64,000 bases of DNA from Deltaproteobacteria bacterium HGW-Deltaproteobacteria-14 (lineage in GTDB: Bacteria; Myxococcota_A; UBA9042; PHBI01), in contig PHBI01000002.1 of assembly GCA_002841945.1 (NCBI GenBank), positions 11,972 through 75,971 of the forward strand, read 5' to 3'. The position numbers and the translations under genes are program-made. Each line of letters opens with the position of its first letter. Within the stretch, counting starts at the first letter, position 1. The notes under the pieces are model-generated. The model was not told where the DNA came from. It worked only from the letters and a program-made list of their open reading frames with translations, and searched no databases. Positions 13,090 through 44,709 of the stretch are shown in pieces.

Positions 13090-13092
13090 TGC

Positions 13093-13449: not shown

Positions 13450-13491
13450 GCTCGCCGGCCGGGTGTTCCGGGGACGGGTGGAACCCCGCTG

Positions 13492-17103: not shown

Positions 17104-17231
17104 CGTGCGTCCTTTTCTTCGGCTCTTGGGGTGGTGCTCCCGAGTCAGTGCACAATGCAGGCCGGCACCTGCACCGTCGACATCGTCGAATACACGATTC
17201 GCAGCCCGTCCTCAAGTAGGGGCTCGCGGGT

Positions 17232-17453: not shown

Positions 17454-18034
17454 TCTCCGGTGTCACGCGTCGCCACTTTCGAGGAGCACGCTCGTTCGTT
17501 TTTCTCTTTTTGCGCCGGGATGATGTCCTGTTGATGCCCCGCTGTCACGGGAAGCAGGGACCGGGATCGGTTGATCGACACGCTCATCATGGCCTCTCGA
17601 ATTGGAACAGCCTCCGCGCGAATTGGGCTGCTGGAGAGCGAGCACCGGTGGAGTGCGACCACCGCGGCGAATTCAGATGTTCAGTGCACGACTCGGCGAC
17701 ATGGGGGTGGTAGCAAGATCCGGAGGAGGGTCGTTCGGGCCCCCAGTCCTTCTCTTCGGCCCTGGAGTCCCCGTGCCCCCCAGCGCGCCCCTATGTGGGT
17801 CACGCGAGCCTTGCAGGACAACGCCCCGAAGCATTCGACCTCGTCCCGAACTTGGCGGGTCGCGCTCGGAACGGGGCTGTGCCATGCTGCCATGCAGCAT
17901 GATTCGACGCCGCCACAACTATGCGTCTCGGCCGAGGTTTGGCGTTCCGACCTCGTCAGGCCATCGGGTTGCCCCGCAGTCCGTTGACCGAGGCGTGATC
18001 CTCGTTAGGTGCTATCCTGCGGGAGTAGACGCTC
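17454..18034. promoter_or_regulatory. 581-bp divergent intergenic region (helicase cluster on minus, zorA on plus); relatively AT-richer; presumed divergent promoters
   Basis: No credible ORF. Local GC is lower (e.g. ttcgtttttctctttttgcg). Sits between two divergently oriented operons. Confidence 0.4.
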
Positions 18035-20731: not shown

Positions 20732-20742
20732 CGAGGACGTGA

Positions 20743-23120: not shown

Positions 23121-23133
23121 TTGGCTGCTGAAG

Positions 23134-26100
23134 GTGGAGGATTGCGTGAGTTCCTACGACCAGCGTGGCGTACACCTTGAACTTTCAGGGGTGCCGCTCT
23201 CCACAGTGGCAACCGCGGCGCTGCGTGACGAGGGCTTCATTCCGTGGCGCGTCGCTCTCTCCGTGCTCGACGAAGCGTGCGACCTGAACGAGGTTTCGGC
23301 CCGGCTTTCGGCGCTCGACGGGACGTTCTCCGAGGAAGACCGCTCCGCGCTCGAGGCGCCTCTGGCCCAGCTCATGCCTCCCACAGTGCCCATGACCCTG
23401 TCGGTAGCCGTTCGTGGGGTGGCAGGACGGACTCGCTACGCGCTCTTAGGCGAGTGGGTAGGCCGGGATGGCTACCGAGTTGACCCGCCACCCGAGCGGC
23501 TGTCACCGGGGATCGTCCGGTGGCGGGAGTCCGACTGGCGCATTACCGCATCACAACTGGAGGTACTCGACTCGCTCGACGGCGTCGAGGGGCTGGGAGC
23601 AAATCGAAGCACCGACCTGGCGCACACCGAGCGGGTGACGTCGGCGGTGCTCGGCGGCGATGCCTCGGTAACACTCGGGCCAGGCTTGCGGTCTAGTCGG
23701 TTCGTTCGCGTCGACGCTGTGGCACCGATGTTTGCCCAGGCCGCACCAGGACGATATCGCATGATGCCAACGGTCGAGGGCATCACAAACGAGACGCTGT
23801 GGGGACAACTGCGGCGGAGCCGCGGGGCCGAGCAGGTGGTGTCGTACCGAGACCCAGATGGCGTCGCAACGAGAGTCGTCTTCACGAGTCGCGCGCAGGC
23901 CGCGATTGCAGATGTCCGCCGCGAAGCCGCACAGATGCTCACGCCACGTCGGGTCGCGCAGATCATGACGCGGCCACAAGACATCCTCGGAGAGAACCTC
24001 GACCTCTCCGGCTTGTCGGAGCGGGTGACGGGCTTCGGCCCGGTGGTGCTCGACGTGAGCTTCGAACCAGGCGAACTCGGCGGACGGGACTGGTGGGACT
24101 TCGACACAACTCTCGTGCTCGACGATGGAGTCGACACGTCGCTCGCCCTCGATCTGAGGGACGAGAACGTCGTACGCACCCTGGAGACCGCTATCGCTGC
24201 GGCGGACGCCGACGGCTCGGCCTTTATCCCGTGCCCCAACCGGGACGCGCTCATGCCGCTGACTGCGCTCCTACGCCAGGCAGTGGCCACGGCACGCGAA
24301 CGCCTGGATGGACTCAAGCCGGAACGGGCGGAGCCACAAGGTTTTCAGATCATCTACAACATCGAGGAGCTCGAGTTCGAGCAGTCGGAGGTAACGCCGG
24401 GCGGAACACCTCCGAGGAAGCCGCGGGGGCTGGCGCCAGGGTTCGAACTCCACGACCACCAGTTGGTCGGATTCTCATGGTTGCATGCGCTCGCGACGGC
24501 GCCAGGGGGCTCGCGGGGGGCGTTGCTCGCCGACGACATGGGGCTCGGGAAGACGCTTCAGGTCCTCGCGCTGCTCTCGGACATGCTCGAAGGGGGGCGT
24601 CCCGGCCCCCATCTGGTCGTTGGACCAGTCGCCGTTCTGACCAACTGGATGAGGGAGGCACGGCGGTTCTTCCAGGAACGACTGCCGTGCCTGCAAATCC
24701 AAGGTCAGTTCCTGCGCGGTGCGTCGCCGGCGATGTCCGCATCCGCACTGCAAACCCAGCGCGTCGTCGTCGCGAGCTACGAGACCCTACGCGTCAACGA
24801 GATCGCGTTCGCGAAGGTGAAGTGGGACACCGTCATCCTGGACGAAGCCCAGAAGGCGAAGAACCCAACGACCCAGATCGCTCGCGTCTTGAGGACGCTT
24901 CAAGCGCGCTTCCGGCTCGCCGTGACGGGTACCCCTGTCGAGAACAGCCTACGAGACCTGTGGACTCTGTACGACTGGGCTGTACCCGGTCTGCTTGGGC
25001 CACTCCGACAATTCCGTACCCGCTTCATGAAACCACTCGGCGACGGCGCGGATAGCGTGCAGCGCCGGGTACTCGCCGACGAGCTAACGAGCACGATCAA
25101 GCCGGTCTTCATGCGACGGCTCAAAGAAGACGCGCTCCAGGGGCTACCACCGATCCACCGGCACGACCACGTCGTCCCGCTCTCGCATGAGCAGGAACTC
25201 ATGTACGCCGCCGTCATCCGGTCGGTAGTTGACGGACGCGAGAAGCCCCTGGGGAGCCTCCCGCGGTTGTTCGGGATGTGCGCGCATCCAGACCTGACTC
25301 CGTGGTTCGACGACCTCCGTGCGCTTGCGGCGAGTTCTTTCCCAAAGGGTCAGAAGCTCTTCGAGCTCCTGGATGACGTCGCGGCGCGCGGCGAAAAGGC
25401 GCTTGTCTTCGCGAACCGGAAGGCCGTCCAACGTTGGATCGCGGACGAAGTCGCTCGCCGATACCAGGTTGCACGGCCTTTCGTTATCAATGGTTGCCTC
25501 GATGACTCGGCCGAGCGGTTGAGGCTCGTCGACTTGTTCCAGAGCCGCCCGGGCTTCGGGTGCATCGTCTTGGCTCCGCGTGCGGCCGGCGTTGGCCTCA
25601 ACATCACGGCGGCAAACCACGTCATCCACTACATGCGCGAGTGGAACCCCGCGGTCGAGAACCAGGCGACGGACCGCTGCTACCGCATTGGGCAGGTCCG
25701 CCCAGTCCATGTGCACACGATAACCGCACGTTCGCCGCGCGGCGTGACGGTCGAGGAGCGACTCGCGGAGCTACTCGAGGCCAAGCGCCGGCTGTTCGCC
25801 GACTTCATCGTGCCGCTTGGCGATGTTGAGGTCGCCCAAAGCGACCTGGTCAACACGGAGGGCTGGGACGAGACGACGGTGGACGGCGACGCAGATCTGT
25901 TCACCGACGCGATGTGGCCAGTTTTACGCTCGGTGCTCGAAGCCGACGCATCGATGCGCGCTGAGCCGCCCTGCGAACACCTCGATGGAGGCCGCGTGAT
26001 CGGGCTCGACGACGGGACCCTGTTCGCAGGCACGAAGGTGGTCCGGCTCGTCGATGGGACCCGCAGGGACGCGGACCGCCTCGAAGCGGCGCTCCGCAAG

Positions 26101-26181
26101 AAGGGGGAGTCAGTGGAGGTGGTGGATACGCGACATCCGACACTCGCGGCGCGGGCGCTGGGGCGTGCGCTGACGTGCTGA
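23134..26181 (+). CDS. zorD: ZorD (SNF2-like helicase, 1015 aa, helicase core in C-terminal half)
   Basis: LADDMGLGKTLQVLAL, VILDEAQKAKN, LAVTGTPVENSL and helicase-C motifs. ~430-aa N-terminal extension. Last gene of the zor operon. Confidence 0.7.
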   Translation: MEDCVSSYDQRGVHLELSGVPLSTVATAALRDEGFIPWRVALSVLDEACDLNEVSARLSALDGTFSEEDRSALEAPLAQLMPPTVPMTLSVAVRGVAGRTRYALLGEWVGRDGYRVDPPPERLSPGIVRWRESDWRITASQLEVLDSLDGVEGLGANRSTDLAHTERVTSAVLGGDASVTLGPGLRSSRFVRVDAVAPMFAQAAPGRYRMMPTVEGITNETLWGQLRRSRGAEQVVSYRDPDGVATRVVFTSRAQAAIADVRREAAQMLTPRRVAQIMTRPQDILGENLDLSGLSERVTGFGPVVLDVSFEPGELGGRDWWDFDTTLVLDDGVDTSLALDLRDENVVRTLETAIAAADADGSAFIPCPNRDALMPLTALLRQAVATARERLDGLKPERAEPQGFQIIYNIEELEFEQSEVTPGGTPPRKPRGLAPGFELHDHQLVGFSWLHALATAPGGSRGALLADDMGLGKTLQVLALLSDMLEGGRPGPHLVVGPVAVLTNWMREARRFFQERLPCLQIQGQFLRGASPAMSASALQTQRVVVASYETLRVNEIAFAKVKWDTVILDEAQKAKNPTTQIARVLRTLQARFRLAVTGTPVENSLRDLWTLYDWAVPGLLGPLRQFRTRFMKPLGDGADSVQRRVLADELTSTIKPVFMRRLKEDALQGLPPIHRHDHVVPLSHEQELMYAAVIRSVVDGREKPLGSLPRLFGMCAHPDLTPWFDDLRALAASSFPKGQKLFELLDDVAARGEKALVFANRKAVQRWIADEVARRYQVARPFVINGCLDDSAERLRLVDLFQSRPGFGCIVLAPRAAGVGLNITAANHVIHYMREWNPAVENQATDRCYRIGQVRPVHVHTITARSPRGVTVEERLAELLEAKRRLFADFIVPLGDVEVAQSDLVNTEGWDETTVDGDADLFTDAMWPVLRSVLEADASMRAEPPCEHLDGGRVIGLDDGTLFAGTKVVRLVDGTRRDADRLEAALRKKGESVEVVDTRHPTLAARALGRALTC

Positions 26182-26399: not shown

Positions 26400-28352
26400 T
26401 CACGTGTTGGGGTTCGCGGCCACGGTTCCGTCGACGCGGGGTGGGCGGGGCCAGAGAGCCAGCGCCTCCTCGAAGAGTCGGCGGCCACGGGTCCGAATCG
26501 CTGCCTCGTCCCAGGTCTCGGCGTCCTGGAACCAGGTGTTGATGCGAATGAGGCTTTGCTGGGCGATCTCGGGCCGCTTGGTGGCGTAGGGGCCGTTGCT
26601 CACCGACGAGTTGAGGGCCTGGGTAAGAAGTGTCAGGTTTCCGAACGTGTGGATGACGCGGTTTCGCTGCTCGATCGCCGACTCGTGCCCGTCGACGACC
26701 TCGACCTCAGCCGGCGCGGGCCACGCGGTCTCCCACCTGACCGGCATGACGTGCTCGACCGAGAGTGGGCCAATGTACTGGATGTTCTCCTGCTTCACGC
26801 CGTGGAGCTGTCGGTTCAGCGCTTGGAGGATGAGCGCGACGCGGCTGCTCTGCACTTCGTTGTAGATGGGTCGATCCAGCCAATGGCGCTCAAAGAGGGC
26901 GTCATCCGGCCAGACCATCGCGCTGGAGTGGCCTTCTGCGAGGTAGTCGCTCACGAGGCCGCGGTCGATCTTGTCCGCGGCGTGCAGGCGTCGGAGCAGG
27001 CCGACAAAGACCTTCACGTAGCTCTTGGTGGGGAGGTTGCACACGAAACGGCGTACGAGATACGACTCCAGGTCGCAGAAGATGCCGGGCAGCGCGTCGG
27101 GATCGACACGATCGCCGGCGCTGACCATGAGGAAGAGGAGAATCGGGTACACGCTGCTGATGTCGAGCCCCTTGAGGCGTCGTGCGAACGCGGCCCACGG
27201 GAAATCGTCCTTGGGCTCCACCAGGTTTGCGAACACGTCGCTGTGGGTGCGGATGAACAGGAGCGCATCCTCCGCGTCGCGCTCTTCGGTCCCCTCCCAC
27301 CAGTCTCGGAACGCTCGGTACAGTCGGCCGACGCTGATCTCGTCGTCCATCTGCGACTGGAGATAGTGGTAGATGAAGATGTCCAGCATGGGCTGCTTCG
27401 CACCACCCAGGCGGACACGGCGCTTCCAGAAACGTTCCTCGGCTTTGCTCCCAGGCGTGGTCACTGGGCGCTCGTCGTACTCGCGCCAGAAGGTGTTGTA
27501 GAGTTCCGTCTGGTCCTTGCCTTGGGCCGTCGCTCGCATGAACGCGAAGTTACGGATGAGGTCTGATGGGAGCAGCGGCTCTCCACGCGCGTTCAGCGAC
27601 TCGAAGATCACCTGCGGGTCATCATCGTTCTGGAGCTCGATCTGTACCAGCAGGACATGCCGCCGGAGCGCGTTGTAGAGGGCCTGGGCGCGAGCCGCCA
27701 TCATCGCGTCGATGCCGTCCTCGACGTCGGTAAAGAACCCGTCCATCACGTCGTGGAAGTAGAGATACGCCTCGACAAGCGCGGGCCGCGGATCGGGTTG
27801 CCGTGCGTACTTGCGTCGTTTGAGCGGGAACGCATCCATCGCGGCAGCTGGGGAGCCGGCCGTCATCAGCTTCTCGAAGACGGTGCGATCGGTGTTCGTC
27901 GGCCAGACCTTGAAGACCTCGTGGGCGCCTCCGACGACTCCCTCATTGCGGGTCAGCCGAGCGAGGTCGTTGACGATCGCCTTGAGCGGATCCTGGCCTT
28001 GGTCTTCCGGCCTGGGGGCGTTCGCCAGACAATCGCGGAAGGCCGCCAGCACGATCTGCAAGGTCGTGAGGCGCTGCTGGCCATCGATGACCTCGGCGGC
28101 GTCGATGTGTGAGCCGAACGTCGCGAGCTGCCGGGTGACGATGGCGCCGAGGAAGTGGTTCTGCACGACGCCGTTCTTCTTGCCGGAGCGGCCCTCGTGG
28201 TCGAGGACCGCTCGGGCCCGCTCCACGATGTCGTTCCAGAGCGGCTGCCACTGCTTGTCCTTGGACCACACGTAGGGTCGTTGGAACAACGGCACGCAGT
28301 ACTGGCGCTCCTTGCGGAAGATGTCGAAGATGGCCGTCTTGCTCGTCTCCAT
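26400..28352 (-). CDS. GmrSD/BrxU-like type IV (modification-dependent) restriction enzyme, DUF262 (ParB-like NTPase) + DUF1524 (His-Me finger)
   Basis: N-terminus FDIFRKERQYCVPLFQRPYVW (DUF262 signature). C-terminus ...SVEHVMPVRW... (DUF1524 HNH-like). 650 aa. Confidence 0.8.
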   Translation of the reverse strand: METSKTAIFDIFRKERQYCVPLFQRPYVWSKDKQWQPLWNDIVERARAVLDHEGRSGKKNGVVQNHFLGAIVTRQLATFGSHIDAAEVIDGQQRLTTLQIVLAAFRDCLANAPRPEDQGQDPLKAIVNDLARLTRNEGVVGGAHEVFKVWPTNTDRTVFEKLMTAGSPAAAMDAFPLKRRKYARQPDPRPALVEAYLYFHDVMDGFFTDVEDGIDAMMAARAQALYNALRRHVLLVQIELQNDDDPQVIFESLNARGEPLLPSDLIRNFAFMRATAQGKDQTELYNTFWREYDERPVTTPGSKAEERFWKRRVRLGGAKQPMLDIFIYHYLQSQMDDEISVGRLYRAFRDWWEGTEERDAEDALLFIRTHSDVFANLVEPKDDFPWAAFARRLKGLDISSVYPILLFLMVSAGDRVDPDALPGIFCDLESYLVRRFVCNLPTKSYVKVFVGLLRRLHAADKIDRGLVSDYLAEGHSSAMVWPDDALFERHWLDRPIYNEVQSSRVALILQALNRQLHGVKQENIQYIGPLSVEHVMPVRWETAWPAPAEVEVVDGHESAIEQRNRVIHTFGNLTLLTQALNSSVSNGPYATKRPEIAQQSLIRINTWFQDAETWDEAAIRTRGRRLFEEALALWPRPPRVDGTVAANPNT

Positions 28353-29204
28353 CGTGCCTCCGTGTGCAAGGCACGACAGCTACTATCGCCCGCCGCGACT
28401 GTCCAGCCGACGGGAGCGGTGCGCGTCGTGACGCAGGTGCTGTTGCGCACCGCGGCGACTTGCTGGGCTGCGTCTCTGGCGCCGCTGAGCCTGGGGAGCG
28501 TCAACTCTGGACACGTTCCCTTCGCAGGCGTCCGGTTCAGAGGACGCCTTCTTCAGGTGCCCGGCGACGTGGCAACTGCATGCCTCTTCATCGACTACTC
28601 CCGTGCAGTTGGCGCGGGCCCCGCTGACGATGGTGACCGACGCGCAGCTGCGCTGGCTCGCCAGCGGCTACCCGGTCGAGTTCGTCGGTGCCGGCACCCC
28701 CCACCATCGACCAACCCGGTCGTCACCGGCTTCGACTCGCCGCCCAAGACGGCCCCAGGGCACGCGTGACACGCTGGTTCGCGGTGCCAGTGTGCACGGT
28801 GGTTGCAGTCCACCGGCGTGCACCACGGCCGTCAGCGGCCTTCTCGGCGATGTACTCGCGGAGCGCAGCGACGATGTCCCCGTGACGGTGTCGGTCATCC
28901 GAGATGCGGGTCGAGCCTCCGCCCTACAGAGCGTAGGGCCTTCACTTCGCGACGCGGCTTGCGCGCCGGCGGCGCCACGACCGTCTCCAGCGTCTACGAC
29001 CCCGCGAGCCTCGAGCGCGTTCGGCGACCGCGCCACCCCGGACCCGGTCATGGACCACGAGCGCAGCGACCCAATCCGGGTACCAATTTTGTACCAATCC
29101 CCCACAAAACCACTCGAAAACCAGCCACAGGCCGCGACAAGCCAGGATGCCATATGTGAACGATTCCAGTAATCTACAACACACGGCAACACCTGACAAC
29201 AGGA

Positions 29205-31454: not shown

Positions 31455-33104
31455 TCACGCGTCGAGGTGGTGCACGGCGGCCGCGGCGAAGGCGTCGTGG
31501 GCGGTCGTCTTGTCGGCGAGGTGCTGCTCCAGCCGGTCGAGCAGGCCCGTCAGCTCATCGACCTTCGCGACGATGCGCTTCTGCTCCGCCATCGGAGGGA
31601 TGCCGACCTGCGCTCCGAGCAGTACCGGCTGGGTCAACTTTCGGCGATTCGTGGTGCCCGAAGTTGCATCAATGAACGGGTAGAACATCAGCATCATGTT
31701 GAGATACTGCGGCGCCACAGCAACGCTCGGTCGCAAGACGTGTGCATGGTTGTTGACCCATGTTCGGCCCTCGATGAGGTAGGAAAATGGCTTGGTTCGC
31801 CCGATGAACGTCTCGTCCTCCACGACCAACACAAGGGGCTCATCGAACAACGCCTCGTCTATCCACCCCACCTGACCGTTGGCCCCATAGTAGGGCACAT
31901 CGCCCGCTCTCTCCGCCCTCTTGGCCTTGCTGACGGGAACACGAAGATGGTCGTAGGAGTAGGCGATGTCGTAGACGCACGCATCGGCCCACTCGACGGG
32001 CGGTTGCCACTCCCGCCGAATCCGCACTCCTGGGTGCTTCGCGAGCCTGATCCGCTTCTGCTGCGCCATTTCCGTGCGCTCGGCCTTCGCCCGCTCCAGC
32101 AGCGCGCTGGCCGGCTCGTCGTTCGGGTCCTGCGGCACCAGCCGACCGCGCACGGCGAGCTGGAGCACGGTCTGCCGCAGCGGGTCCACGTCGGCGGGGG
32201 CGGTGAACAGGTCGTCCATCCGCTCCGCGATGCGGTCCCACGCGACCTCGACCTCATCCGGGGTCTCGGCGTCCCGAAGGGCGGCGAGCGCGGCGTCGCG
32301 CAGTGCCGTGCGGGTGGCCTCGCGGGCGTTCCGGGCGGCCTCCAGCCGGTCGAGCAGGCCCATCAGCTCATCGACGCGGGCGACGATGCGCTTCTGCTCG
32401 GCGAGGGGGGGCACGGGTACCGCGTAGGCCGCCAGGGATCTGCCAGTGAGGTGCTTGATTGTCGCACCCGTGAACAGGTCTGCGAGACGCCCTCCCGACG
32501 AGTCGCACCGCAGGAGGTAGGCCAAGTACCACGACGAGATGCCACAGTAGGGCCGGGCTCGGTGCAGCGCCTTCTGGTAAACCATGCCGGCGACCGACTC
32601 GTCGCAGACCGCAGCACGGCCTGGCTCGCCTCCTTCGCAGATGACCAGGTCGCCGACTGCGAGTGAGCACTCGTCAACCTCACTGTCCTCCAGACGAAGC
32701 TGTTTGAGGTCGTCGAGTACGAACTCGAACCACTGGAGATTGGCGTTCCGAAGGTATGGACGGAGCGGACCCGAGTTCTTTGCCTTGTCGAGCATCTTGC
32801 CCAAGCGAGCATCGGTGATGGTTCCGAATCGTGTCCAAGCCCACCCTTCCGGCACGTCGAACGGAGTCTCGTCCCTCGAAACCCCCGTCGTCGCCTTCGG
32901 GGTTCGGATCTCACCGGCCTTGTGGAGCCGCGCCTTCTCCGCCGCGATGCGCTTGAGCAGCACGCTTGCAGGTTCGTCCTCGGGGTCCTGCGGCACGAGC
33001 TTTCCGCGCACCGCGAGCTGGAGCACCAGTTCCCGCAGTCGCTTCACCCCGTCCGGGGCTTCAGCCAGCGTGTCGAACGCCGCGATCAAGTCCTGCGGCG
33101 TCAT
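31455..33104 (-). CDS. hsdS: Type I R-M specificity subunit HsdS (two TRDs)
   Basis: Two repeats of the conserved ...PPLAEQKRIVA..VDELMGLLD..LE motif. 549 aa. Start overlaps the hsdM stop. Confidence 0.85.
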   Translation of the reverse strand: MTPQDLIAAFDTLAEAPDGVKRLRELVLQLAVRGKLVPQDPEDEPASVLLKRIAAEKARLHKAGEIRTPKATTGVSRDETPFDVPEGWAWTRFGTITDARLGKMLDKAKNSGPLRPYLRNANLQWFEFVLDDLKQLRLEDSEVDECSLAVGDLVICEGGEPGRAAVCDESVAGMVYQKALHRARPYCGISSWYLAYLLRCDSSGGRLADLFTGATIKHLTGRSLAAYAVPVPPLAEQKRIVARVDELMGLLDRLEAARNAREATRTALRDAALAALRDAETPDEVEVAWDRIAERMDDLFTAPADVDPLRQTVLQLAVRGRLVPQDPNDEPASALLERAKAERTEMAQQKRIRLAKHPGVRIRREWQPPVEWADACVYDIAYSYDHLRVPVSKAKRAERAGDVPYYGANGQVGWIDEALFDEPLVLVVEDETFIGRTKPFSYLIEGRTWVNNHAHVLRPSVAVAPQYLNMMLMFYPFIDATSGTTNRRKLTQPVLLGAQVGIPPMAEQKRIVAKVDELTGLLDRLEQHLADKTTAHDAFAAAAVHHLDA

Positions 33105-34638
33105 CCCTGGCCTCCGCCCGCGAGGGCCGCGGCGAGCACCTGGCGCAGCTCCTCACGCAGCGCCGCCGCTGCCGCCCGCTCCTTGTCGAAGCGCGCCAGC
33201 AGGTCGTCGGGGTCCTCGTGATTCGTGCCCGGGGCGTTCGGGTTGGTGATGTCGAGGTTGAAGCCGCGCTCGCGGAGCTGGTCGAGGCTGACCTTCCAGG
33301 CGTTCTCGCTCTCCTGGCGGTCGTTCCACCACGCCTTCTCGGGCGCGAACTCCTCGATGCGCATGGGCTTGGTCTTCGAGTAGCTCTTGTAGCCCGGCGG
33401 GTACGGGTGCTCGTAGTACCAGACCTCGGTGGTCGGGCGGCCCTTCTCGAAGAACAGCACGTTGGTCTTGATGCTCGTGTAGGGCGCGAAGACGCCCTTG
33501 GGCAGCCGGACGATGGTGTGCAGGTCGCACTCGGCCAGCAGGCGCTCCTTGATGCGGGTCTTGACGCCCTCGCCAAACAGCGTCCCGTCCGGCAGCACGA
33601 CGGCGGCCCGGCCGCCGGGCTTGAGCAGCTCGATGATGAGGACGAGGAACAGGTCGGCCGTCTCCCGGGTGCGGAAGTCGGCCGGGAAGTTGTTCTCGAT
33701 GCCGTCCTCCTCCATCCCGCCAAACGGCGGGTTGGTGACCACCACGTCCACGCGGTCGCGCATGGAGATGTCGCGCAGCGGGCGCGACAGGGTGTTGTCG
33801 TGAACCACGCCGACCGGCACGTCGATGCCGTGGACGATCATGTTGGTGACGCACAAGAGGTGCGGCAGCGGCTTCTTCTCGACCCCGCGGACGCTGGCCT
33901 GGAGCTGGGCCTCCTGGTCGGGGGTCCGCACGTCGCGCTTGCGAATGTTCTCGATGGCGCAGGCGAGGAAGCCGCCGGTGCCGCAGGCGGGGTCGAGGAT
34001 GATCTCGCCGAGGCGCGGGTTCACCATGTCCACGGCGAACTGCGTGACCGCGCGCGGGGTGTAGTACTCGCCCGCGTTGCCCGCGCCCTGCAGATCCTTG
34101 AGGACCTTCTCGTAGAGGTCGCCGAAGAGGTGCCGGTTGGTGGCGTCGTTGAAGTCGATGTCGCCCTGCATCTTGTTGATGACCTGCCGCAGCAGGGTGC
34201 CGGACTTCATGTACTGGTAGGCGTCGGCGAACACGCCCTTGACGAGGAGACGGCGGCGGCGGAGAGCCTGCGCGGCCCGCGCCTCCGCGTCGTCGGCCTC
34301 GATCTTGGGGCCGACCTCCATGCCCTTGAGCGCGGAGAACAGGGTGTTGTTGGCGAAGTCGAGCAGCCTGTCCCCGGTGATTCCCTCGGGGTCGGAAGCC
34401 CAGGCGGACCAGCGCAGGTCCTTGGCCGTCTGGGTCTCGCCGCCCTCCTGCCAGGTGACGTTCACCAGGGGGGAGGCGAAGTCCGGCTCCATCAGCGCCA
34501 GCTCTTGCTCGCGGTCGTCCCAGATCTTGAGGAAGAGGAGCCAGACGAGCTGGCCGATGCGCTGGGCGTCGCCGTCGACGCCGACGTCCTTGCGCATGAT
34601 GTCCTGGATGGACTTGACGGTGGTGTTCAGGGACACGG
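33101..34638 (-). CDS. hsdM: Type I R-M N6-adenine DNA methyltransferase HsdM (start probably GTG at 34638 or ATG at 34594, not the ORF-track start at 34798)
   Basis: NPPFG motif IV, DPACGTGGFL motif I, and N-terminal HsdM_N-like QRIGQLVWLLFLKIWDD. The longest ORF would overlap the hsdR 3' end by 61 nt, so an internal start is preferred. Confidence 0.8.
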
Positions 34639-34736
34639 GGTAGGCCTCGGTCAGGGATGGCAGTGGATGGGCGGGGCGACGGGCGGGGCGATGTCGGGGC
34701 GGCGGCGCTCGCCAGCGCCCGAGACAAGGCGGCGCG

Positions 34737-37067
34737 TCAGCCCGTCGGGCGGTACAGCTCGGTCTCCAGCTCGCGCACGGCGGCGCGATAGGCGTCAAGG
34801 GTGCCGAAGCGGTTGACCAGCTGCACGGGCGTTCCCAGCGCGGAGATGGGCTGCACGCGGAGGATGGCGGGGTCCTCGACCGGCGCCAGGCCCTCGTCGG
34901 CGTACTTGTCGAGCAGGGCGTTCAGCACGGCGCGGGCGGGCTCGCCGTACTTCGTGAAGACGTCGCGCTTCTTGACGTTGTCGGCGCGCTCGCGGCGGGT
35001 GAGCGGCGGGCGGCCGTAGACGACGTGGCAGACCAGGTCGAAGGCGTCCAGGTCGCGGCCGACCTGCTCTCGCAGCTCCTCGAACAGGACGCCCTGCTCG
35101 GCCAGCTCGTCGATGACGGCGGCCTTCCGCTCGGCGGCGGTCCAGCGGCGGAGGAAGTCGTCGAGGCTGGCGAACTGCTGCAACACGGTCTGCTTGGTGT
35201 AGTCGACGAGGGACTCGGTGATGAGCTTGCCGTCCTTGCCGTAGTACTGCACGCGCTCGCCCAGGACCTGGACCCGGACCGGGGTGACGACGTAGCGGGT
35301 CGCGCCGTCGGTGGACGGGTCGCCGAGGGGGTCGCCGTCGCCGGGGGTGTCGTCAGGGGGCGTGGGCGGGTCGTAGGGGCCCGGCTCGTAGATGATGACC
35401 GGGTCGCCGTCGAAGCTCGGGTCGGCGAACAGCTCGGTCGCCTTCTTGAAGTCCATGATGGTGAACCAGAGCTTGTCGGCCGCTTCGTGGATGCGGGTGC
35501 CGCGGCCGATGATCTGCTTGAACTCGATCATCGACTCGATCCGCTGGTCGAGGACGATGAGCTTGCAGGTCTTGGCGTCGACGCCAGTTGTCAGGAGCTT
35601 CGAGGTCGTGGCGATGACCGGGTAGCGGTGCTCGGGGTGGATGAAGTTGTCGAGCTGCCCCTTGCCTTCGTCGTTGTCGCCGGTGATGCGGACGATGAAC
35701 CTCGCGGTGTTGGTGGCCTCGTCGGGGCGGCGGAGCGCTACCTCGTTGGCCAGGGCAGAGCGCATGCGCTCGGCGTGGTCGATGTCCTGGCAGAAGACGA
35801 TGGTCTTGCCGTAGGGGTCGGTGGCGCCGAGGTAAGCGACGACCTTCTCGGCGACGCGCTTGGTGCGTTGGTTGAGCACGAGCACGCGGTCCATGTCTTT
35901 TTGGTTGTAGACGCGGTCCTCGATCTCCTGACCGAGGTCGTCTTTCATCCCCTTGGGGGGGCGCCAGCCTTGGAGGTCGACGTCGAGGTCGATGCGGACG
36001 ACCTTGTAGGGGGCGAGGAAGCCATCGTCGATGCCCTGCTTGAGGCTGTACTCGTAGACCGGGTCGCCGAAGTAGCTGAGCGTCGAGACCTCCTTGGTCT
36101 CCTTGGGAGTCGCGGTGAGGCCGAGCTGGATGGCGGGCTCGAAGTAGTCGAGGATCTCGCGCCACGCGCTGTCCTCGCGGGCGCTGCCGCGGTGGCACTC
36201 GTCGATGACGATGAGGTCGAAGAAGTCGGGGCTGAACTGCTTGTAGACGTTCTTCTCCTCCTCGGTCCCGGTGACGGCCTGGTAGAGCGCGAGGTAGACC
36301 TCGTAGGCCGGATCCATGTCGCGGTTTCTGACCTTGGTCATCACCGACCCGAACGGCTTGAAGTCGTTGGTGATGGTCTGGTCGGCCAGGATGTTGCGGT
36401 CGACGAGGTAGAGCACCCGCTTGACGCGCTCGGCCTTCCAGAGGCGCCAGATGATCTGGAAGACGGTGAGGGTCTTGCCCGTGCCGGTGGCCATCACGAG
36501 GAGGATGCGGCGCTGGCCGGCGGCGATGGCCTCGACCGTGCGCTGGACGGCGATGCGCTGGTAGTAGCGCGGCTCCTTGCCGCCGGGGTCGTCGTAGTAC
36601 GGCTGGCGAGCGAGCTTCTCGGTCGCGTCGGTGAGGCCCTTCCACGCACGGTAGCGGGTCCAGAGGTCTTCGGGCGACGGGAACGCGTCGAGCGCGAGCG
36701 AGCGCTCGAGGGGCTGGGAGAGGCCGGTCCTGTCGTGGAACAGGAAACCATCGCCGTTGGACGCGAAGACGAAGGGGACGTCGAGGGTTTCGGCGTACCC
36801 GAGCGCCTGCGCCATGCCACCACCCACGGGGTGGTGGTTGTCCTTGGCCTCGACGACGGCGAGGGGGAGGTTCGCCTGGTAGAAGAGCAAGTAGTCGGCG
36901 CGCTTCTTCTTACCCCGATGGGCGAGCTTTCCACGGACGATGACCCGCCCGGCGGTGAAGGAGAACTCGCGGCGGATCTGCGTGTGCTTGTCCCAGCCGG
37001 CCTGGATGATCGCCGGCGTGATGAAGTTCTGGCAGATCTCGGTCTCGTTCTGGGACTTCTTGCTCAC
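34737..37067 (-). CDS. hsdR: Type I restriction enzyme R subunit HsdR (776 aa)
   Basis: N-terminal PD-(D/E)xK nuclease region (..DYLLFY...AVVEAKD..). SF2 motifs [11 protein letters not shown] and [10 protein letters not shown]. Confidence 0.85.
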
Positions 37068-37186
37068 GCAGGCGGCCTCCCAACGTCGTGCCGCGGTCGC
37101 GACCGCAGCGGCGCGAGCCTCTCACGCCGGTCGCCAAGGTTCAACGTCACCCGGCCCCCCCCCGCGCGACCGCACCCCAGGCCGAT

Positions 37187-37330
37187 CCGGAACGGCATCG
37201 ACCCGATCCCGAACGGCATCGAGCCGATCCCGAACGGTATCGGGCCGATCCCGAACGGCATCGGGCCGATCCCGAACGCTCTCGACCCGATCCCGAACGG
37301 CATCGGGCCGATCCCGAACGCGGGATCAGG
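37187..37330. repeat. 21-bp tandem repeat x ~7 (consensus ccgatcccgaacggcatcggg) between the hypothetical gene and the hsdR upstream region
   Basis: Direct reading gives seven head-to-tail 21-bp units with point variants, starting immediately after the stop of the 37326.. gene. Confidence 0.8.
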
Positions 37331-38469: not shown

Positions 38470-38581
38470 GCCACCGGAGCGCCCGGCGCGGATGGCGGGC
38501 GGGACGCCCACCGTCCGAACGCCACCGGAGCGCCCGGCGGGGGTGGCGGGCGGGACGCCCACCGTCCGAACGCCACCGCGG
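38470..38581. repeat. 51-bp tandem repeat x2.2 (gccaccggagcgcccggcg..gatggcgggcgggacgcccaccgtccgaac)
   Basis: Direct reading. Lies in the non-coding stretch between the giant helicase gene stop (38623) and the hypothetical gene start. Confidence 0.75.
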
Positions 38582-38622: not shown

Positions 38623-41600
38623 TCAGCTGCCGGGCGAGCTGACGGCTGGCCGAATGGCGTCGCCGACGAGCTCGACGCGCCTGTGGCTGACGAGGTATTC
38701 GATGCCTGCCTCCATGGCCGCGCGGACCTTCTTGCCGGTCGTTCGGTAGCCGAAGAGGCGCGACAGCTCCGTCACCAGCTCGTCGTGGGCGATGGAGCCG
38801 GATTGTGAGACCAGCCACTCGGCCGCGTTGGCGACCTCCTGGGGGGGCAGGTGCTCGGCCGCCCGGCGGGTGTCGTTGTCGGGATGGAGGCGGAAGACGC
38901 GCCACGTCGTCGGGTCGACGTCCGGCGGCCAGAGGAAGTCCCCGCGCGTGACCGGCCGCAGCACCTTCGCGATGCGCATCGCCGCGACCTGGACCTTTTC
39001 GACGCTGCGCTTGGTCGCCTTCAACGCCCCCCAGGACGCCGCGACCCGGCGGGTGGCCTCTTCGATGTGAATGGGCCCCTCGGTCGCCACCACGCTGACG
39101 AGCCGCTCGGCGAGCGCAGGGCCGATTCGCGGGTCGTCCCACAGCTCCCGCTCGCCAAGCGCCGGTGTCTCGGCCTGGCGGTAGTCGATCGCGTGCTCGG
39201 GCAACGTCGGCTCGGCGGAGTCGGCCCCGAGGAGCGCGTCGATGTCGACCCTCGCGGACGCCAAAGCCGGCGCGGTCTCCACGGCGGCGGACTCGCCGTT
39301 GCCACCGCCATTGCCCCCATTGGACGCGCCGACGGTGGTTTGCACCGCCTCTCGGGCTTCGGTCAGGGCCTGCCGCAACCGCACCATCACCCGCTCACGG
39401 TCGTACCACCAGTCGAGCGACCAGATGCGGAACAGGCGCCACCCCAGAGATTCGAGCACCGCCTGGCGGAGGCGGTCACGGTCACGCGCGGAGCGCGCCG
39501 AGTGATAGGTCGCACCGTCGCACTCCACGCCGAGCAAGTAGCTCCCGGGCCGGTCCGGATGCTTCACGCCGAGGTCGATCCTGTAGCCGGCGCAGCCGAC
39601 CTGCAGATCGACCTGGAACCCCTCCGCCCGCAGCCGCTTGCACACGGCCTCCTCGAACGGGCTCTCGAAGTCGGCGCCCGAGTCGAGCGCCACAGCCTCG
39701 TCGATGGCCCGCGGCCCGCGCTTCGCATAGTCGAGGAAGGTCTTCAGGTGGGCGACGCCGACCGCCTTGGTGCGCGCCAGGTCGATCTGGTCGTGCGTCA
39801 GCGTGGAGAAGACGACCAACAGCTCGCGCGCCCGAGTGATTGCGACGTTCAAGCGCCGCTCACCCCCATCGCGGTTGAGCGGGCCGAAGTTCATCGCGAG
39901 CTTCCCGATTCGGTCGGGGCCGTAACAGATGCTGAAGAGCATCACGTCGCGCTCGTCGCCCTGGACGTTCTCCAGGTTCTTGACGAACACCGGCTCGGGC
40001 ACGGCGTCGGTGAAGAAGCGCTCGAGGCGCTCGTTGCGCTGTCGCAGGCCGTCGAGGAGGTCGAGGATGAGCGTCTGCTGCGCCTGGCTGAAGGTCACGA
40101 CGCCGATGCTCTTCTGCGACAACGCCGGGTCGGCGAGGCGGCGCGCGATCTCGGCTACGACCGCCTCAGCCTCGGCCTGGTTGGTGCGAGATTTCCCCTT
40201 GTCGTAGAAGCCCTTCGGAATGTGGCGCCACTTTACGCCGAGTGCTGGCACATCCGAGTCGGCCGCGGGGAAGATGTGCAGGCGGTTCTCGTAGTAGTGG
40301 TGGTTGCTGAACGCGATCAGCGACTCATGGCGGCTGCGGTAGTGCCACTTGAGCGAGTGCGAGACGAACCCGGCGCGGACGCACTCGTCGAGGATGCTCT
40401 CCAGCTCCTCCATGTCGTCGTCGTCGGGAGGGGCGTCGTCGTCGGCCTTCTGGAAGAAGTTGGTCGGCGGGAGCTGCTTGCTGTCTCCGACCACGATCAT
40501 CTGGCGCCCGCGCGCGATGGCTCCGATGGCGTCCCAGGGCGGGATCTGCGAGGCCTCGTCGAAGACGATGGCGTCGAAGAGCGACATGGACGGATCCAGA
40601 TACTGCGCCACCGACAGCGGGCTCATCAGGACACAGGGCTTCAGCTTCATCAGGGTGTGCGGGATACGGGAGAAGAGCTTGCGGATCGGCATGTGGCGGC
40701 GCTGCTTCTTCAGCTCCGTCCGCAGGAGCGCCAGCTCGCCGGGTCCGCTGATCGCCGGCAGGCGCGCAGCGAGGCGCGAGCGGATCTCTTCACGGGCAAC
40801 GGCCTGCATCTCCAGGTCGAGCTTCCGGAAGCGCTCGATGCGCGCGTCCTGTGAAGTGCCGCGGAACTCGCGCAGGGCAGGCACGCCGCTGACGGCCTCG
40901 TCGATCCACCACGTCGCCAGCCCGCGCTCGAAGCTCGGCAGCAGCGACTGGCCGTCGAGTTCACCTTCGGCGTGCGCCGCGAGAAGGCCGGCCACCGCGC
41001 CGTCCGTCGCGGCCCGCTCGACCGCGTCGCGCCACGCACACCAGCTGCGAAGCTCGCGGATGGCGCCGCGCCAGCCCTGAAAATGCGCGGTCGCCAGAGG
41101 AAGATCGGCCAACGTGCTGGTGAACCGGCCGCTGCCCTCGTTCAGCCGCAGGAGCTCCAAGAGCGTGGTTCGCGCAGCGCGGTAGGCGCTCCACGCCTCG
41201 CGATAGCGACGCACCGCCTGACCTCGGGGGCGGCTCGCTGCGAGCAGCTCGCGCTCGTCGGTCACGAGCGCGAGCAATCGCTCGCGTCCCTCCCGCCCGG
41301 CGAGGAGGGCCCCGCCGGCCATGTCATCGCCCAGGTCAAGCGCTACCGTGCGGTAGGCCTCGGCCCAGCGGATCATCGCGTCGATGGCGTCCCAGTCGGT
41401 GTCGAGCCCCTGCCAAAACGGACCGAGGAAGGCCTCGACCGCGTCGGACTGGCGCGCGATGGCCTCGTCCCGCTCCTTCACCGTCACGGCCCGCTCGAGG
41501 TCCTCGTGTGCTTGCAGGTTGGGCGGGACCTTGCCGTCTTTCGCGACCCGCTTGAGCGAACGCCGGGCGCTCCAGAGCATGAAAAACGCGATCAAGAAGA

Positions 41601-44600
41601 ACGTATGGGCCCACTTCCCGAACTTCGCGTTCAGCTCGCCGAGGTCCATCGAGAGCAGCCCCGCAGCGAAGTGCTCGTCGACGCCCGACCAGATGTCGCG
41701 GCGCTCTCGAACCGTCGCCTCGATGCCCTTGGCGCGCTGTCGATCGCTGGACCAGTTCGACGTTTGGAGCATCTCGCGGGGCGGTCCGGGTGAGCCGACC
41801 AGGACGTCTGCGGCGCGGTCGAGGCGGTCGAGCACGGCGTCCGTCAGCGCCGGCAAGGTGAGCCCCAACGCTTGCGCGGCCTCCGGGGCGGCGGCGTTGA
41901 CCGCGCGACCGCTCTCGAGCGCAGCGTCGAGGGCCTCGGTGATGGCGCGCTCGGCGTGCGGCGTCCAGTTGCCGACCGGTACGCCGCGCCAGGGATGGGC
42001 CGACGGGAGGCCGACGTCGCGAGCCGCGACTTCGACGGCTTCGAGTTGCTTGCGAATCTGGTCGACGCGTTGCGAGTTGACACTCCGCGGCGGGTCCAGC
42101 GGCACCGCGATCGCCGGAGCGGCTTCGTGCTTGAGCACGGCCGACGTGGCCTGGAAGACCGAGGCGCCATAGGGGCCAGGGATGTGAAGGGCCTCGGCGA
42201 AGCGATTGAGCGAGGTCCGCAGGCCGCGGAGCTCGTCGGCACGCAGCGCCCACTCGCTCGCGCCCCGCTTGCCGGCGAGCTCGAACGGGGCGGCCAACTG
42301 CCGGATCACCTCGGTCTTGTTCGACTTGTTCGAGTGGAGCTCGAGGCAGAACTCGCCGATGCCCGCGAGCTTCAGGCGCCGATGGACGACCTCGAGGGCG
42401 GCCATCTTCTCGGACACGAAGAGCACGGTCTTGCCATCGCCGACCAGCTGCGCGACGAGGTTGGTGATGGTCTGCGACTTCCCCGTTCCCGGCGGGCCTT
42501 GGAGGACGTAGCTGTTGCCATCCTTGGCAGCGAAGACCGCCGCGAGCTGGGATGAGTCGGCGTCAACGACGCAGAGGTCGTCGTGGACGGGCCGGTCGTC
42601 GTCGATGTTCGCCGCGGAGACGAAGGGGCGGGCGAGCGGGAAGGACGCCCCCTTGCCCTCCATGATGTGCTCGAAGAGCGGGTTCGCCAGCAGCGTCTGG
42701 GTGCGGTCCTCGAGGTCGGTCCACATCAGGTATTTGGAGAAGGAGAACTCGCCGATGGCCGCGGTCGCCTTGACGTCCCAGCGCGGGATGTCCATCACGG
42801 CGCGGCGGAAGCGATTGAGGATCAAAGGAATATCGAGCCCCGATGCGTCCTCGGGCAGCTCGTCGAGGCCGCGCACGTCGACGCCGAAGTCGGTCTCCAA
42901 TTTCTTGAGGAGGGTGACGTTGATGCGCGGGTCGTCGTCGGTGACGCTGACCCGGAATGGCTCGTGGGCCGAGCCTCGGTGGAGCTCGACCGGCAAGAGG
43001 ATCACCGGCGCGAAGCGCTCGGTCTCGGAGTTGTCGGCCTCGAACCAAGAGAGAAAGCCGACGGCGAGGTAGAGGGTGTTGGAGCCGGTCTCCTCGAGGG
43101 CGGTGCGCGAGTCCCGGTAGAGCTTGGTGAGGCGGCTCTGGAGATCGGCGGCGGCCAGGTCGGCGTGGAGACGACGGCGCTCGAGGGCGGCGGCGAGGAA
43201 GGCCCGTGCGGCGTCTTCGTTGACCCGCTGCTCCATCAGCTGGCCGCTGCGGGGACCGAACACCTCGCGCTCGTCGGGGCGAGGGAGCAGCGCGAGCTTC
43301 GACCCGCCGGCGAGGACGTCTTCGAGCGCCCCGACGTCGGCGCTCTTGAGGGGAATGATCGACTTCAGGGTGAAGCGGACGTTGAGCAGGCGGTTGCGCA
43401 ACGAGAGGTCGAGGAGCTTGCCCTTCCAGCGATCCAGCCGCGAGCGGGTGGACTCGACGCTGACGTGGTCGTCCGTCTCCGGGAGGTGGAGCTGCGGGAC
43501 GGTAGACGCGGGGAGCTGCGACGAGGGCTCGAGGACGCGTTCGGCAAACGCTTGCCACCCCGCCTCGGTCCGGCGGAGGGGGAGCGGGCGGATCTTCGCG
43601 ATTCGAGCGCGCTTGACGTCGATGGCGCAGACGAACTTGTCGGTGTCCTCGAGGTAGCGGCGGGCGACGTCGGAGGCGTGCCGGAAGTCGCTCTTCATGG
43701 CCGCCGCCGAGGAGTCGAATACGAGCGCCTCCTCGCCATCGACGCGCTTGCGGACCGCCGTCGGGTCGAAGATCGACGGGTCGGGGAGCGAGAAGTCGTC
43801 GAGCCAGACACCGGGGAACGCGTGGCCCTCGATGACGTTCAGGAACGGGTTCAGTCCGGTCTGCTCGAGGCACGCCGCGAACAGGACCGTGAGGTCGAGG
43901 CAGGTGCCCATCTGGTCAGCCAGGAGCTGGTCCGGGAGGCGGATCTTCTGGCCCTCTTGTTCGAAGCTGGCCGGCGGGTTGACGTAGCTGACCCCGAGCT
44001 CCTGGACGGCGCCGTAGATGGCCGCGCTCATCGCGACGACGCGCTGGCGGCTGCGCTCCTGGTAGCCGCTGAAGGTCGGGTCGCCGACCAGCCGCTCGAG
44101 GTGTCGCCGCGCGACCTTCAATACGGTCGCGATGGCCGGCTGGTTGGGCAGCACGAAGGCGGCGAGGAGCTCCGGGACCGAGCGCAGGCCGCTCCAGTGA
44201 TTGAAGGCGAGGATCTCGAAGTCGAGGGTCGTGGTGCCTGCAGACCGGCCGGCCACGAAGGCCTCCAGTCGGATGCGACCCGACTCGCTCTCGATCTGTG
44301 CGGCGAGCCGATCGGCCGATAGGGCCAGCGGGAGCGAGCGTAGGTTGTAGGTCGCGCCAGCGTCGATCGACGCGATGCGGGTGACCCAGGGCTCGAACAC
44401 CAGCGGGTCCGCGCTCACCCGGACCTCGACGTCCTCGACCCGCGTGTCGGCGAGGTTGTCGATCCTCAGGAGCCGAATGATGGGGACGTCGTTCTGTTGC
44501 AGAGCGAAGTTCACGCGGGGGTCGTAATCGCACTGGAGTCGTAGCTGAGTGGTCACTGCGTCTTCCCCTTGTGTCCGCGGCGGCGCCAAGGCTCGTGTGT

Positions 44601-44709
44601 GCGAACGGTACAGATGAAGATAGCAGCTCGCGGTTCGAGCGAACACCGCCCACGCGGCAGGCCCGTCGTCAGCCTCACCGCGGATGGTGCTCGCCGCGTC
44701 GCACCGCAA
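38623..44709 (-). CDS. 2028-aa multidomain protein: transglutaminase-like Cys/His/Asp core, DUF4011-like motif, Upf1-like SF1B helicase (AAA_11/AAA_12), C-terminal Vsr/DUF559-type endonuclease-like domain
   Basis: TGase-like GTCLDLTVLFAACLEQTGL...GHAFPGVWLDD. DUF4011-like WKGKLLDLSLRNRLLN. Walker A GPPGTGKSQT and Walker B VFDEASQ...VVGDSKQLPPT. C-terminus GVECDGATYHSARSARDRDRLRQAVLESLGWRLFRIWSLDWW. Confidence 0.8.
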   Translation of the reverse strand: MRCDAASTIRGEADDGPAAWAVFARTASCYLHLYRSHTRALAPPRTQGEDAVTTQLRLQCDYDPRVNFALQQNDVPIIRLLRIDNLADTRVEDVEVRVSADPLVFEPWVTRIASIDAGATYNLRSLPLALSADRLAAQIESESGRIRLEAFVAGRSAGTTTLDFEILAFNHWSGLRSVPELLAAFVLPNQPAIATVLKVARRHLERLVGDPTFSGYQERSRQRVVAMSAAIYGAVQELGVSYVNPPASFEQEGQKIRLPDQLLADQMGTCLDLTVLFAACLEQTGLNPFLNVIEGHAFPGVWLDDFSLPDPSIFDPTAVRKRVDGEEALVFDSSAAAMKSDFRHASDVARRYLEDTDKFVCAIDVKRARIAKIRPLPLRRTEAGWQAFAERVLEPSSQLPASTVPQLHLPETDDHVSVESTRSRLDRWKGKLLDLSLRNRLLNVRFTLKSIIPLKSADVGALEDVLAGGSKLALLPRPDEREVFGPRSGQLMEQRVNEDAARAFLAAALERRRLHADLAAADLQSRLTKLYRDSRTALEETGSNTLYLAVGFLSWFEADNSETERFAPVILLPVELHRGSAHEPFRVSVTDDDPRINVTLLKKLETDFGVDVRGLDELPEDASGLDIPLILNRFRRAVMDIPRWDVKATAAIGEFSFSKYLMWTDLEDRTQTLLANPLFEHIMEGKGASFPLARPFVSAANIDDDRPVHDDLCVVDADSSQLAAVFAAKDGNSYVLQGPPGTGKSQTITNLVAQLVGDGKTVLFVSEKMAALEVVHRRLKLAGIGEFCLELHSNKSNKTEVIRQLAAPFELAGKRGASEWALRADELRGLRTSLNRFAEALHIPGPYGASVFQATSAVLKHEAAPAIAVPLDPPRSVNSQRVDQIRKQLEAVEVAARDVGLPSAHPWRGVPVGNWTPHAERAITEALDAALESGRAVNAAAPEAAQALGLTLPALTDAVLDRLDRAADVLVGSPGPPREMLQTSNWSSDRQRAKGIEATVRERRDIWSGVDEHFAAGLLSMDLGELNAKFGKWAHTFFLIAFFMLWSARRSLKRVAKDGKVPPNLQAHEDLERAVTVKERDEAIARQSDAVEAFLGPFWQGLDTDWDAIDAMIRWAEAYRTVALDLGDDMAGGALLAGREGRERLLALVTDERELLAASRPRGQAVRRYREAWSAYRAARTTLLELLRLNEGSGRFTSTLADLPLATAHFQGWRGAIRELRSWCAWRDAVERAATDGAVAGLLAAHAEGELDGQSLLPSFERGLATWWIDEAVSGVPALREFRGTSQDARIERFRKLDLEMQAVAREEIRSRLAARLPAISGPGELALLRTELKKQRRHMPIRKLFSRIPHTLMKLKPCVLMSPLSVAQYLDPSMSLFDAIVFDEASQIPPWDAIGAIARGRQMIVVGDSKQLPPTNFFQKADDDAPPDDDDMEELESILDECVRAGFVSHSLKWHYRSRHESLIAFSNHHYYENRLHIFPAADSDVPALGVKWRHIPKGFYDKGKSRTNQAEAEAVVAEIARRLADPALSQKSIGVVTFSQAQQTLILDLLDGLRQRNERLERFFTDAVPEPVFVKNLENVQGDERDVMLFSICYGPDRIGKLAMNFGPLNRDGGERRLNVAITRARELLVVFSTLTHDQIDLARTKAVGVAHLKTFLDYAKRGPRAIDEAVALDSGADFESPFEEAVCKRLRAEGFQVDLQVGCAGYRIDLGVKHPDRPGSYLLGVECDGATYHSARSARDRDRLRQAVLESLGWRLFRIWSLDWWYDRERVMVRLRQALTEAREAVQTTVGASNGGNGGGNGESAAVETAPALASARVDIDALLGADSAEPTLPEHAIDYRQAETPALGERELWDDPRIGPALAERLVSVVATEGPIHIEEATRRVAASWGALKATKRSVEKVQVAAMRIAKVLRPVTRGDFLWPPDVDPTTWRVFRLHPDNDTRRAAEHLPPQEVANAAEWLVSQSGSIAHDELVTELSRLFGYRTTGKKVRAAMEAGIEYLVSHRRVELVGDAIRPAVSSPGS

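Follow-up and report, generated by a model that had tools for sequence, protein, structure and literature searches.

A probable stand-alone anti-phage protein of the ProA family joins a transglutaminase-like domain to a helicase–nuclease in a deltaproteobacterial defense island

What does a giant bacterial protein do that joins a transglutaminase (TGase)-like domain to a helicase and a nuclease, and does it serve anti-phage defense or housekeeping repair? The question is raised by a minus-strand open reading frame (ORF) of 2028 codons at 38623..44709 in a 64,000-nt stretch of DNA (the window) from Deltaproteobacteria bacterium HGW-Deltaproteobacteria-14 (assembly GCA_002841945.1, contig PHBI01000002.1, positions 11,972 to 75,971, forward strand). 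A first reading of the letters alone, made without database searches (the sequence-only reading), had described a TGase-like core followed by a DUF4011 motif, a Upf1-like helicase and a Vsr-like endonuclease. Profile, homology and structure-prediction analyses indicate that the gene very probably encodes an intact ProA-family protein, acting alone as one polypeptide against phages and spread by horizontal transfer, whose relatives include Hhe and the PADLOC candidate PDC-S37.

The ORF represents a real gene, because it matches families at E = 0 and shows gene-like GC content by codon position (0.70/0.47/0.90, in a sequence of ~70% GC overall). The 2028-aa product first assigned to it began 51 codons too early, the TTG at 44709 being merely the earliest possible start. 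The true start is likely the GTG at 44556, yielding a protein of 1,977 aa. This start is favored because of the predicted ribosome-binding site AAGGGGAAG, because the 1,977-aa product is identical to the gene called on public metagenome data (contig ENA ERZ27239242 k141_67844, 80 kb, and Logan SRR3546451), and because position 1 of the NCBIfam ProA profile aligns at ORF residue 67, 15 residues past the GTG. Residues are hereafter numbered from this GTG, equivalent to the numbering of the sequence-only reading minus 51.

Family membership is carried by the NCBIfam equivalog NF058533 (“anti-phage protein ProA”), which the protein matches at 2113.1 bits against a cutoff of 1500, with residues 16–1938 aligned to profile positions 1–1902 of 1903. 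The profile spans the β-sandwich and TGase-like module, DUF4011, the superfamily 1 (SF1) helicase, the Vsr-like nuclease and DUF3320, and comparison with it disclosed no architectural difference. Sequence identity reaches 67% with the nearest 50%-cluster representative and 38–46% with the other aligned full-length homologs. PADLOC PDC-S37 (PDLC05009) is likewise matched (E = 0, 1444.7 bits), residues 369–1969 covering profile positions 5–1545 of 1550.

A TGase-like extension ahead of DUF4011 had initially been regarded as unusual. Judged from profile and homology searches, a large family that is already catalogued has this architecture as its norm: the extension lies within the curated ProA equivalog, and the architecture was published in 2013. 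When the N-terminal 348 residues were searched exhaustively with HMMER, 4,288 representatives of 50%-identity clusters were returned at E ≤ 1e-3 (988 at E ≤ 1e-30), the module mostly beginning proteins of 1,950–2,050 aa; most of the best 150 have lengths of 1,900–2,100 aa, the module right at the N-terminus and the same architecture. A scan of 185,579 species genomes with the full-length alignment gave at least 600 matches, the best 80 of which were taken as the locus set. These 80 loci are distributed over Myxococcota/“Deltaproteobacteria”, Planctomycetota, Verrucomicrobiota, Bacteroidota, Bacillota, Synergistota, Alpha-, Beta- and Gammaproteobacteria and others. The best relatives, together with the GC content, suggest an origin in Myxococcota. 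The N-terminal module is present in 68 of the 80 loci, while about 10, which are PDC-S37-like, start at the DUF4011 region with no module nearby. Some family members (representatives P0062, P0126, P0148 and P0175) carry ~190 extra residues ahead of the β-sandwich; in P0062 and P0126 these gave no Pfam match at E ≤ 0.001.

The N-terminal region was then characterized structurally. The first 372 residues yielded 43 homologs, whose alignment was used for AlphaFold2. A hidden Markov model profile of these 43 sequences found nothing meaningful in the PDB, and the fold was therefore tested by AlphaFold2 and Foldseek. The model (predicted local distance difference test score (pLDDT) 91.6, predicted template-modeling score 0.87) comprises a β-sandwich (residues 1–115) and an α/β core (~117–340), followed by a disordered linker. 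With the whole model, Foldseek against the PDB placed TG2, protein 4.2, factor XIII and the TGase-like putative protease 3kd4 at the top (E ~3e-4) and also returned UNC119 and glycosidase β-sandwiches. Judging from alignment length, the 113–117-column alignments to TG2, protein 4.2 and factor XIII, together with the UNC119 and glycosidase matches, probably cover the β-sandwich; the core was therefore modeled separately (residues 117–345, pLDDT 95.0). The core alone retrieved 3kd4, yeast and mouse PNGase (3esw, 2f4m), 3isr, PeiP (8z4f), TglA and Rad4/XPC, with further matches to arylamine N-acetyltransferase, menin, TG2 and axonemal proteins, the last presumably TGase-like as well. Nearly all of these belong to the TGase/papain-like Cys-His-Asp fold class. 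Pfam scans of the 43 homologs taken singly point the same way, with 28 matching DUF553 (“Transglutaminase-like domain”, best E = 4.6e-5) and 12 matching Transglut_core (best E = 0.012); 2 of the 43 matched DUF4145, presumably the HEPN family found in the HEPN-bearing form described in 2013. On the predicted models, the N-terminal module has a TGase/papain-like fold, in line with the original proposal. The fold and the Cys-His-Asp triad are shared with TG2/factor XIII, PNGase, 3kd4, 3isr and PeiP, and the order of β-sandwich then core with TG2 and 3kd4. In contrast to these enzymes, to which sequence identity is just 10–18%, the ProA domain is fused to a helicase–nuclease.

Is this module an enzyme or a scaffold? 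Its core contains the motifs GTCLDL (Cys219), GHAFPGVW (His245) and FDP (Asp264). Conservation was assessed in 182 homologs, mostly 50%-identity cluster representatives with ~40% overall identity: Cys219 is kept in 180, His245 in all 182, and position 264 is Asp or Glu in 168. The AlphaFold2 model puts Cys219 at a helix N-terminus and His245 where the following strand begins, which is the canonical placement. Conceivably, the module is a non-catalytic binding domain like that of Rad4/XPC, holding DNA or a partner while helicase and nuclease perform the chemistry. Rad4/XPC and menin, both non-enzymatic TGase folds, are indeed among the Foldseek matches, and the ~10 loci that lack the module keep the remainder, suggesting that the core machine can exist without it. 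However, the triad is gone from TGase folds that are inactive, Rad4 among them, whereas here it is retained at ~40% overall identity with Cys and His modeled as in active papain-like/TGase enzymes, and we consider a purely binding role quite unlikely. The near-invariant triad argues that the domain has cysteine-enzyme activity, as a peptidase, an isopeptidase or an amidase.

Downstream of this module, Pfam supports the order DUF4011, helicase and Vsr-like nuclease given by the sequence-only reading (Table 1). All four of its named domains are present, but it missed the β-sandwich, the insertion between helicase motifs I and II, and the DUF3320/winged helix–turn–helix (wHTH) tail. The motif LLDLSLRNRLLN that it attributed to DUF4011 falls inside the Pfam domain. 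Motif conservation was read from an alignment of the ProA protein with 12 full-length homologs (13 sequences), in which W377, L381, L382, D383, L384 and N388 of the DUF4011 region are invariant. The Upf1-like Walker motifs are also confirmed, with IGHMBP2, Upf1, Sen1 and NAM7 as the nearest solved sequences in a PDB sequence search. Walker A, Walker B (DEASQ), the GD..QLPP of motif III and most of motif VI (GGERRLNVAITRAR) are invariant in the alignment. Walker A and B are ~640 residues apart; the segment between motifs I and II is poorly conserved (the consensus is mostly “x”), and tblastn matches to plasmid homologs split into two pieces there. By its motifs and nearest relatives, the helicase is of the Upf1-like SF1 type with a long insertion.

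The predicted nuclease domain contains the GVECDGATYH...WRLFRIW signature noted at the outset, inside REase_MTES_1575, with RID at 1659–1661 and ECDG at 1678–1681. All 13 aligned sequences have R1659, D1680, G1681 and Y1684, 12 have D1661 and 10 have E1678. Contrary to the first description, the domain does not form the C-terminus: ~245 residues follow it, DUF3320 among them, and in this tail W1876, R1889, R1898 and E1907 are conserved in the full-length alignment. No HEPN/DUF4145 match was detected by Pfam in the ProA protein at E ≤ 0.1, and the protein begins with the β-sandwich. Sequence alignment thus shows intact and conserved catalytic motifs in all three putative enzymatic modules.

Comparison with described systems places the protein among single-gene defense proteins. 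Hhe (Gao et al. 2020; NCBIfam NF042953, PADLOC PDLC02194) likewise combines DUF4011, an SF1 helicase and a Vsr-like nuclease in one gene, and its C-terminal helicase and nuclease parts align with ours (877.7 bits NCBIfam, 638 bits PADLOC); however, the equivalog cutoff of 2000 is not reached, and the best-scoring stretch covers just the C-terminal third. PDC-S37 has the same DUF4011–helicase–nuclease–DUF3320 body, whereas its profile lacks a counterpart to the first ~370 residues. Anantharaman, Makarova, Burroughs, Koonin and Aravind (2013, Biol Direct 8:15, PMC3710099) reported giant proteins comprising a transglutaminase-like peptidase, an SF-I helicase, a Vsr restriction endonuclease (REase) and two wHTH domains overlapping DUF3320, without modification genes and with an extra N-terminal HEPN (Swt1/Abi2) RNase domain. 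The MTES_1575 giant proteins, after which the Pfam domain MTES_1575 is named, match ours in uniting TGase-like, helicase, Vsr REase and wHTH parts in one polypeptide without a modification gene; unlike ours, they carry an N-terminal HEPN.

The genomic neighborhoods were examined next. The ProA protein has neither a conserved partner gene nor a methyltransferase partner: across the best 80 loci no neighbor is conserved, the commonest flanking family being an ABC ATPase found in 10 of 80 at variable distance, position and strand, and the ORF downstream of the gene in the window gave no tblastn match in any of them. A two-gene system with the downstream ORF (254 aa or 418 aa) as partner was rejected, as this ORF is absent from the 80 loci and matches nothing in Pfam, NCBIfam or PADLOC, and no neighbor recurs. 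Homologs match 479 plasmid records at E ≤ 1e-20, 7 of them with at least 80% query coverage; these best-covered matches are annotated as DUF3320-domain proteins, and one of them, a DUF3320 protein of 2,221 aa, is cargo on a conjugative MOBH plasmid from Pseudomonas aeruginosa. A full-length copy occurs in just one putative phage record. Disrupted copies were also observed. In one locus (L084, 4253–7794), which belongs to another, helicase/SMC-like island, the copy breaks off behind the N-terminal module and an rve transposase gene lies ~1.2 kb downstream; in a second locus (L085, 8001–14857), the copy is divided among three ORFs in a row (344, 1015 and 922 aa). A free-standing N-terminal module, considered for short hits, was rejected: P0009 is a truncated copy with rve nearby, and P0015 is one ORF of a split gene.

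The lack of a conserved neighbor and the homologs on conjugative plasmids therefore point to a mobile single-gene defense system rather than a housekeeping repair gene. That the protein is a DNA-repair or RNA-surveillance helicase–nuclease merely lying beside a defense island would be in keeping with the repair role of Vsr, the surveillance roles of Upf1, Sen1 and IGHMBP2, the JGI annotation of homologs as “very-short-patch-repair endonuclease” and the core DUF4011 gene of P. aeruginosa described below. Nevertheless, the best 80 loci show no synteny and are spread over many phyla, homologs ride on conjugative plasmids and exist as disrupted copies, and the gene sits inside a lower-GC defense island under a curated anti-phage label. 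Taken together, these observations make a housekeeping function extremely improbable.

Several points weigh against the anti-phage assignment and against the TGase-like enzyme within it. According to Johnson et al. 2023 (PMC10250203), the P. aeruginosa core genome includes a large DUF4011 gene, PA14_RS11765, which occurs in every isolate and flanks core defense hotspot 1, so that not every DUF4011 protein is obviously accessory. A literature search found no primary report behind the name ProA, and the anti-phage activity rests on the curated label and context. The protein's own DUF553 match, at residues 201–237 around Cys219, is sub-threshold (12.3 bits, E = 0.12; cutoff 20.5), and the Foldseek scores of the core are modest (E = 4e-3 to 1, template-modeling score 0.3–0.4).

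How might such a protein act? For the TGase–helicase–Vsr architecture a modification-independent model has been proposed (PMC3710099). By analogy, the ProA protein would operate without a modification partner, its wHTH and DUF4011 parts engaging the invading nucleic acid, ATP driving a presumed 5'→3' translocation (a polarity borrowed from the Upf1-like SF1B group), and the Vsr-like nuclease nicking or cutting the DNA. The nuclease is essential for defense in the relative Hhe, where the mutant E1731A abolishes it (bioRxiv 10.1101/2022.06.16.496414). The TGase-like domain, as a putative active enzyme, would most likely sense or process a phage protein, or ProA itself, and so license the nuclease; a role as a second effector is less likely.

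Alternatively, the protein could be an abortive-infection toxin whose nuclease, and possibly peptidase, attacks host DNA or proteins upon infection, killing or arresting the cell instead of degrading phage DNA selectively. The missing modification partner, which would mark self DNA, fits such a mode, as do the suicidal back-up activities proposed for the HEPN-bearing version (PMC3710099) and the weak defense phenotypes reported for Hhe (bioRxiv 10.1101/2022.06.16.496414). Yet the ProA protein lacks a HEPN domain, and a helicase–nuclease with a DNA-binding wHTH fits direct targeting of foreign DNA equally well. We regard the toxin mode as rather unlikely, though not negligible.

Within direct targeting, a more daring role for the TGase-like domain is that of an amidase or isopeptidase acting on an attachment to phage DNA, unmasking it for the helicase–nuclease as a “strip-then-cut” restriction enzyme. 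Candidate substrates could be a terminal or end-protecting protein bound covalently to the DNA, or a DNA hypermodification with an amide linkage. Two observations would fit such an accessory, counter-counter-defense role: the closest folds include the amidase PNGase, and the module is dispensable in PDC-S37-like relatives; we nonetheless consider it highly improbable. If true, ProA would be self-contained and would defeat phage DNA protection. As a discovery, the gene itself adds little, since the family is curated as anti-phage, its architecture was described in 2013 and its members number in the thousands. The role of a strictly conserved TGase-like triad on a helicase–nuclease is the question of residual value, for which the family offers an easy single-gene test system.

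Table 1 Features of the ProA-family gene and of the surrounding island. Positions are those of the window; residues are counted from the GTG start.
Feature	Residues	Position	Strand	Remarks
ProA-family gene	1,977 aa	38623..44556	-	GTG start; stop codon included
Shine–Dalgarno-like AAGGGGAAG		44562..44570	-	5 nt upstream of the GTG start; read from sequence
N-terminal β-sandwich	1-115	44212..44556	-	AlphaFold2 model, pLDDT 91.6; nearly all β-strand
Transglutaminase-like (papain-like Cys-His-Asp) core	117-340	43537..44208	-	AlphaFold2 of core alone, pLDDT 95.0
Triad codons	Cys219; His245; Asp264	43900-43902; 43822-43824; 43765-43767	-	
DUF4011	380-553	42898..43419	-	Pfam PF13195, E = 5.6e-47, full profile 1-158; contains LLDLSLRNRLLN
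Helicase Walker A GPPGTGKS	687-694	42475..42498	-	Invariant 13/13; PDB IGHMBP2 match here
AAA_19/AAA_30 around Walker A	670-721			Pfam, E = 6.6e-7/6.5e-5
Segment without Pfam match between helicase motifs I and II	~745-1290	40687..42324	-	
Helicase motifs II-VI	1323-1584	39805..40590	-	DEASQ 1333-1337, GDSKQLPP 1357-1364, GGERRLNVAITRAR 1564-1577; best PDB sequence matches Upf1, Sen1, NAM7
AAA_11	1323-1365			Pfam, E = 1.9e-14
AAA_12	1387-1584			Pfam, E = 2.9e-18
Vsr-like restriction-endonuclease-fold REase_MTES_1575	1634-1731	39364..39657	-	Pfam PF18741, E = 3.5e-37
DUF559 (weak)	1675-1730			Pfam, E = 0.0026
C-terminal DUF3320/predicted winged-helix region	DUF3320 1813-1850, tail to 1977	38623..39120	-	Pfam PF11784, E = 1.2e-7
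ORF with gene-like codon GC	1,791 aa	1594-6969	-	No Pfam, NCBIfam or PADLOC match; abuts DrmD-like gene, downstream of it
DrmD-like SNF2 helicase		6970-10365		NF038317, 625.7 bits vs cutoff 610
UvrD/GajB-like helicase		11005-13092	-	
ORF	132 aa	13093-13491	-	No matches
Protein with two SF1 helicase cores and a C-terminal zinc-finger-like match	1,239 aa	within 11005-17211	-	MkoA-like, PADLOC 137 bits
Diverged Zorya type I-like operon		18029-26181	+	
GmrSD type IV restriction enzyme		26400-28379	-	
Fic/DOC protein with helix–turn–helix		30045-31253	+	
Complete type I restriction–modification operon		HsdS 31455-33152; HsdM 33101-34921; HsdR 34737-37121	-	
ORF downstream of ProA	254 aa	37326-38090	-	No Pfam, NCBIfam or PADLOC match; beside none of 80 homologs
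Extracytoplasmic function (ECF) sigma factor and small zf-HC2 anti-sigma protein	207 aa; 81 aa	45160-46022	+	Divergent from ProA; ~600-nt intergenic region

The surroundings are consistent with a defense island, as originally proposed: type I restriction–modification, GmrSD, Fic, Zorya-like and DrmD-like genes lie nearby (Table 1). The ProA gene closes a lower-GC stretch on the right, GC content rising from 0.65–0.71 (1–44 kb) to ~0.75 (46–52 kb). This compositional step at ~44–46 kb suggests that an island acquired by horizontal transfer ends on its right side next to ProA; no tRNA gene was found within the window. Several large genes of the 45-kb island have weak or no family matches and may be more interesting than the ProA gene. 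The giant 1,791-aa protein in the operon of the DrmD-like helicase is arguably more novel, and the three-gene run at 11005–17211 on the minus strand was assigned to no known system. In the Zorya-like operon, a ZorA-like protein (88 bits PADLOC, below the NCBIfam cutoff) is followed by a 379-aa protein with weak similarity to ZorB; where ZorC would be expected lies an ORF of 451 aa without matches, and the SNF2 protein resembling ZorD scores 496 bits in PADLOC and 345 bits in NCBIfam against a cutoff of 1500.

To the right of the ProA gene lie the ECF sigma/anti-sigma pair and genes for a Ser/Thr kinase, a glyoxalase and glycogen debranching. In Myxococcus xanthus, the ECF sigma/anti-sigma pair DdvS/DdvA reportedly controls a defense island (PMC11506125). 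On the other side, the 530-nt gap after the ProA stop holds a perfect-register 51-nt tandem duplication (38470–38571, 96% identical), and the 254-aa ORF beyond it is probably helical, as judged by eye. Directly upstream of hsdR, a 21-nt tandem repeat of ~8 copies (37159–37326, minus strand) lies mostly within a 79-aa ORF (37064–37303) whose start it overruns; it reads as six MPFGIGS-like heptads and may represent a putative repeat peptide or non-coding repeat DNA.

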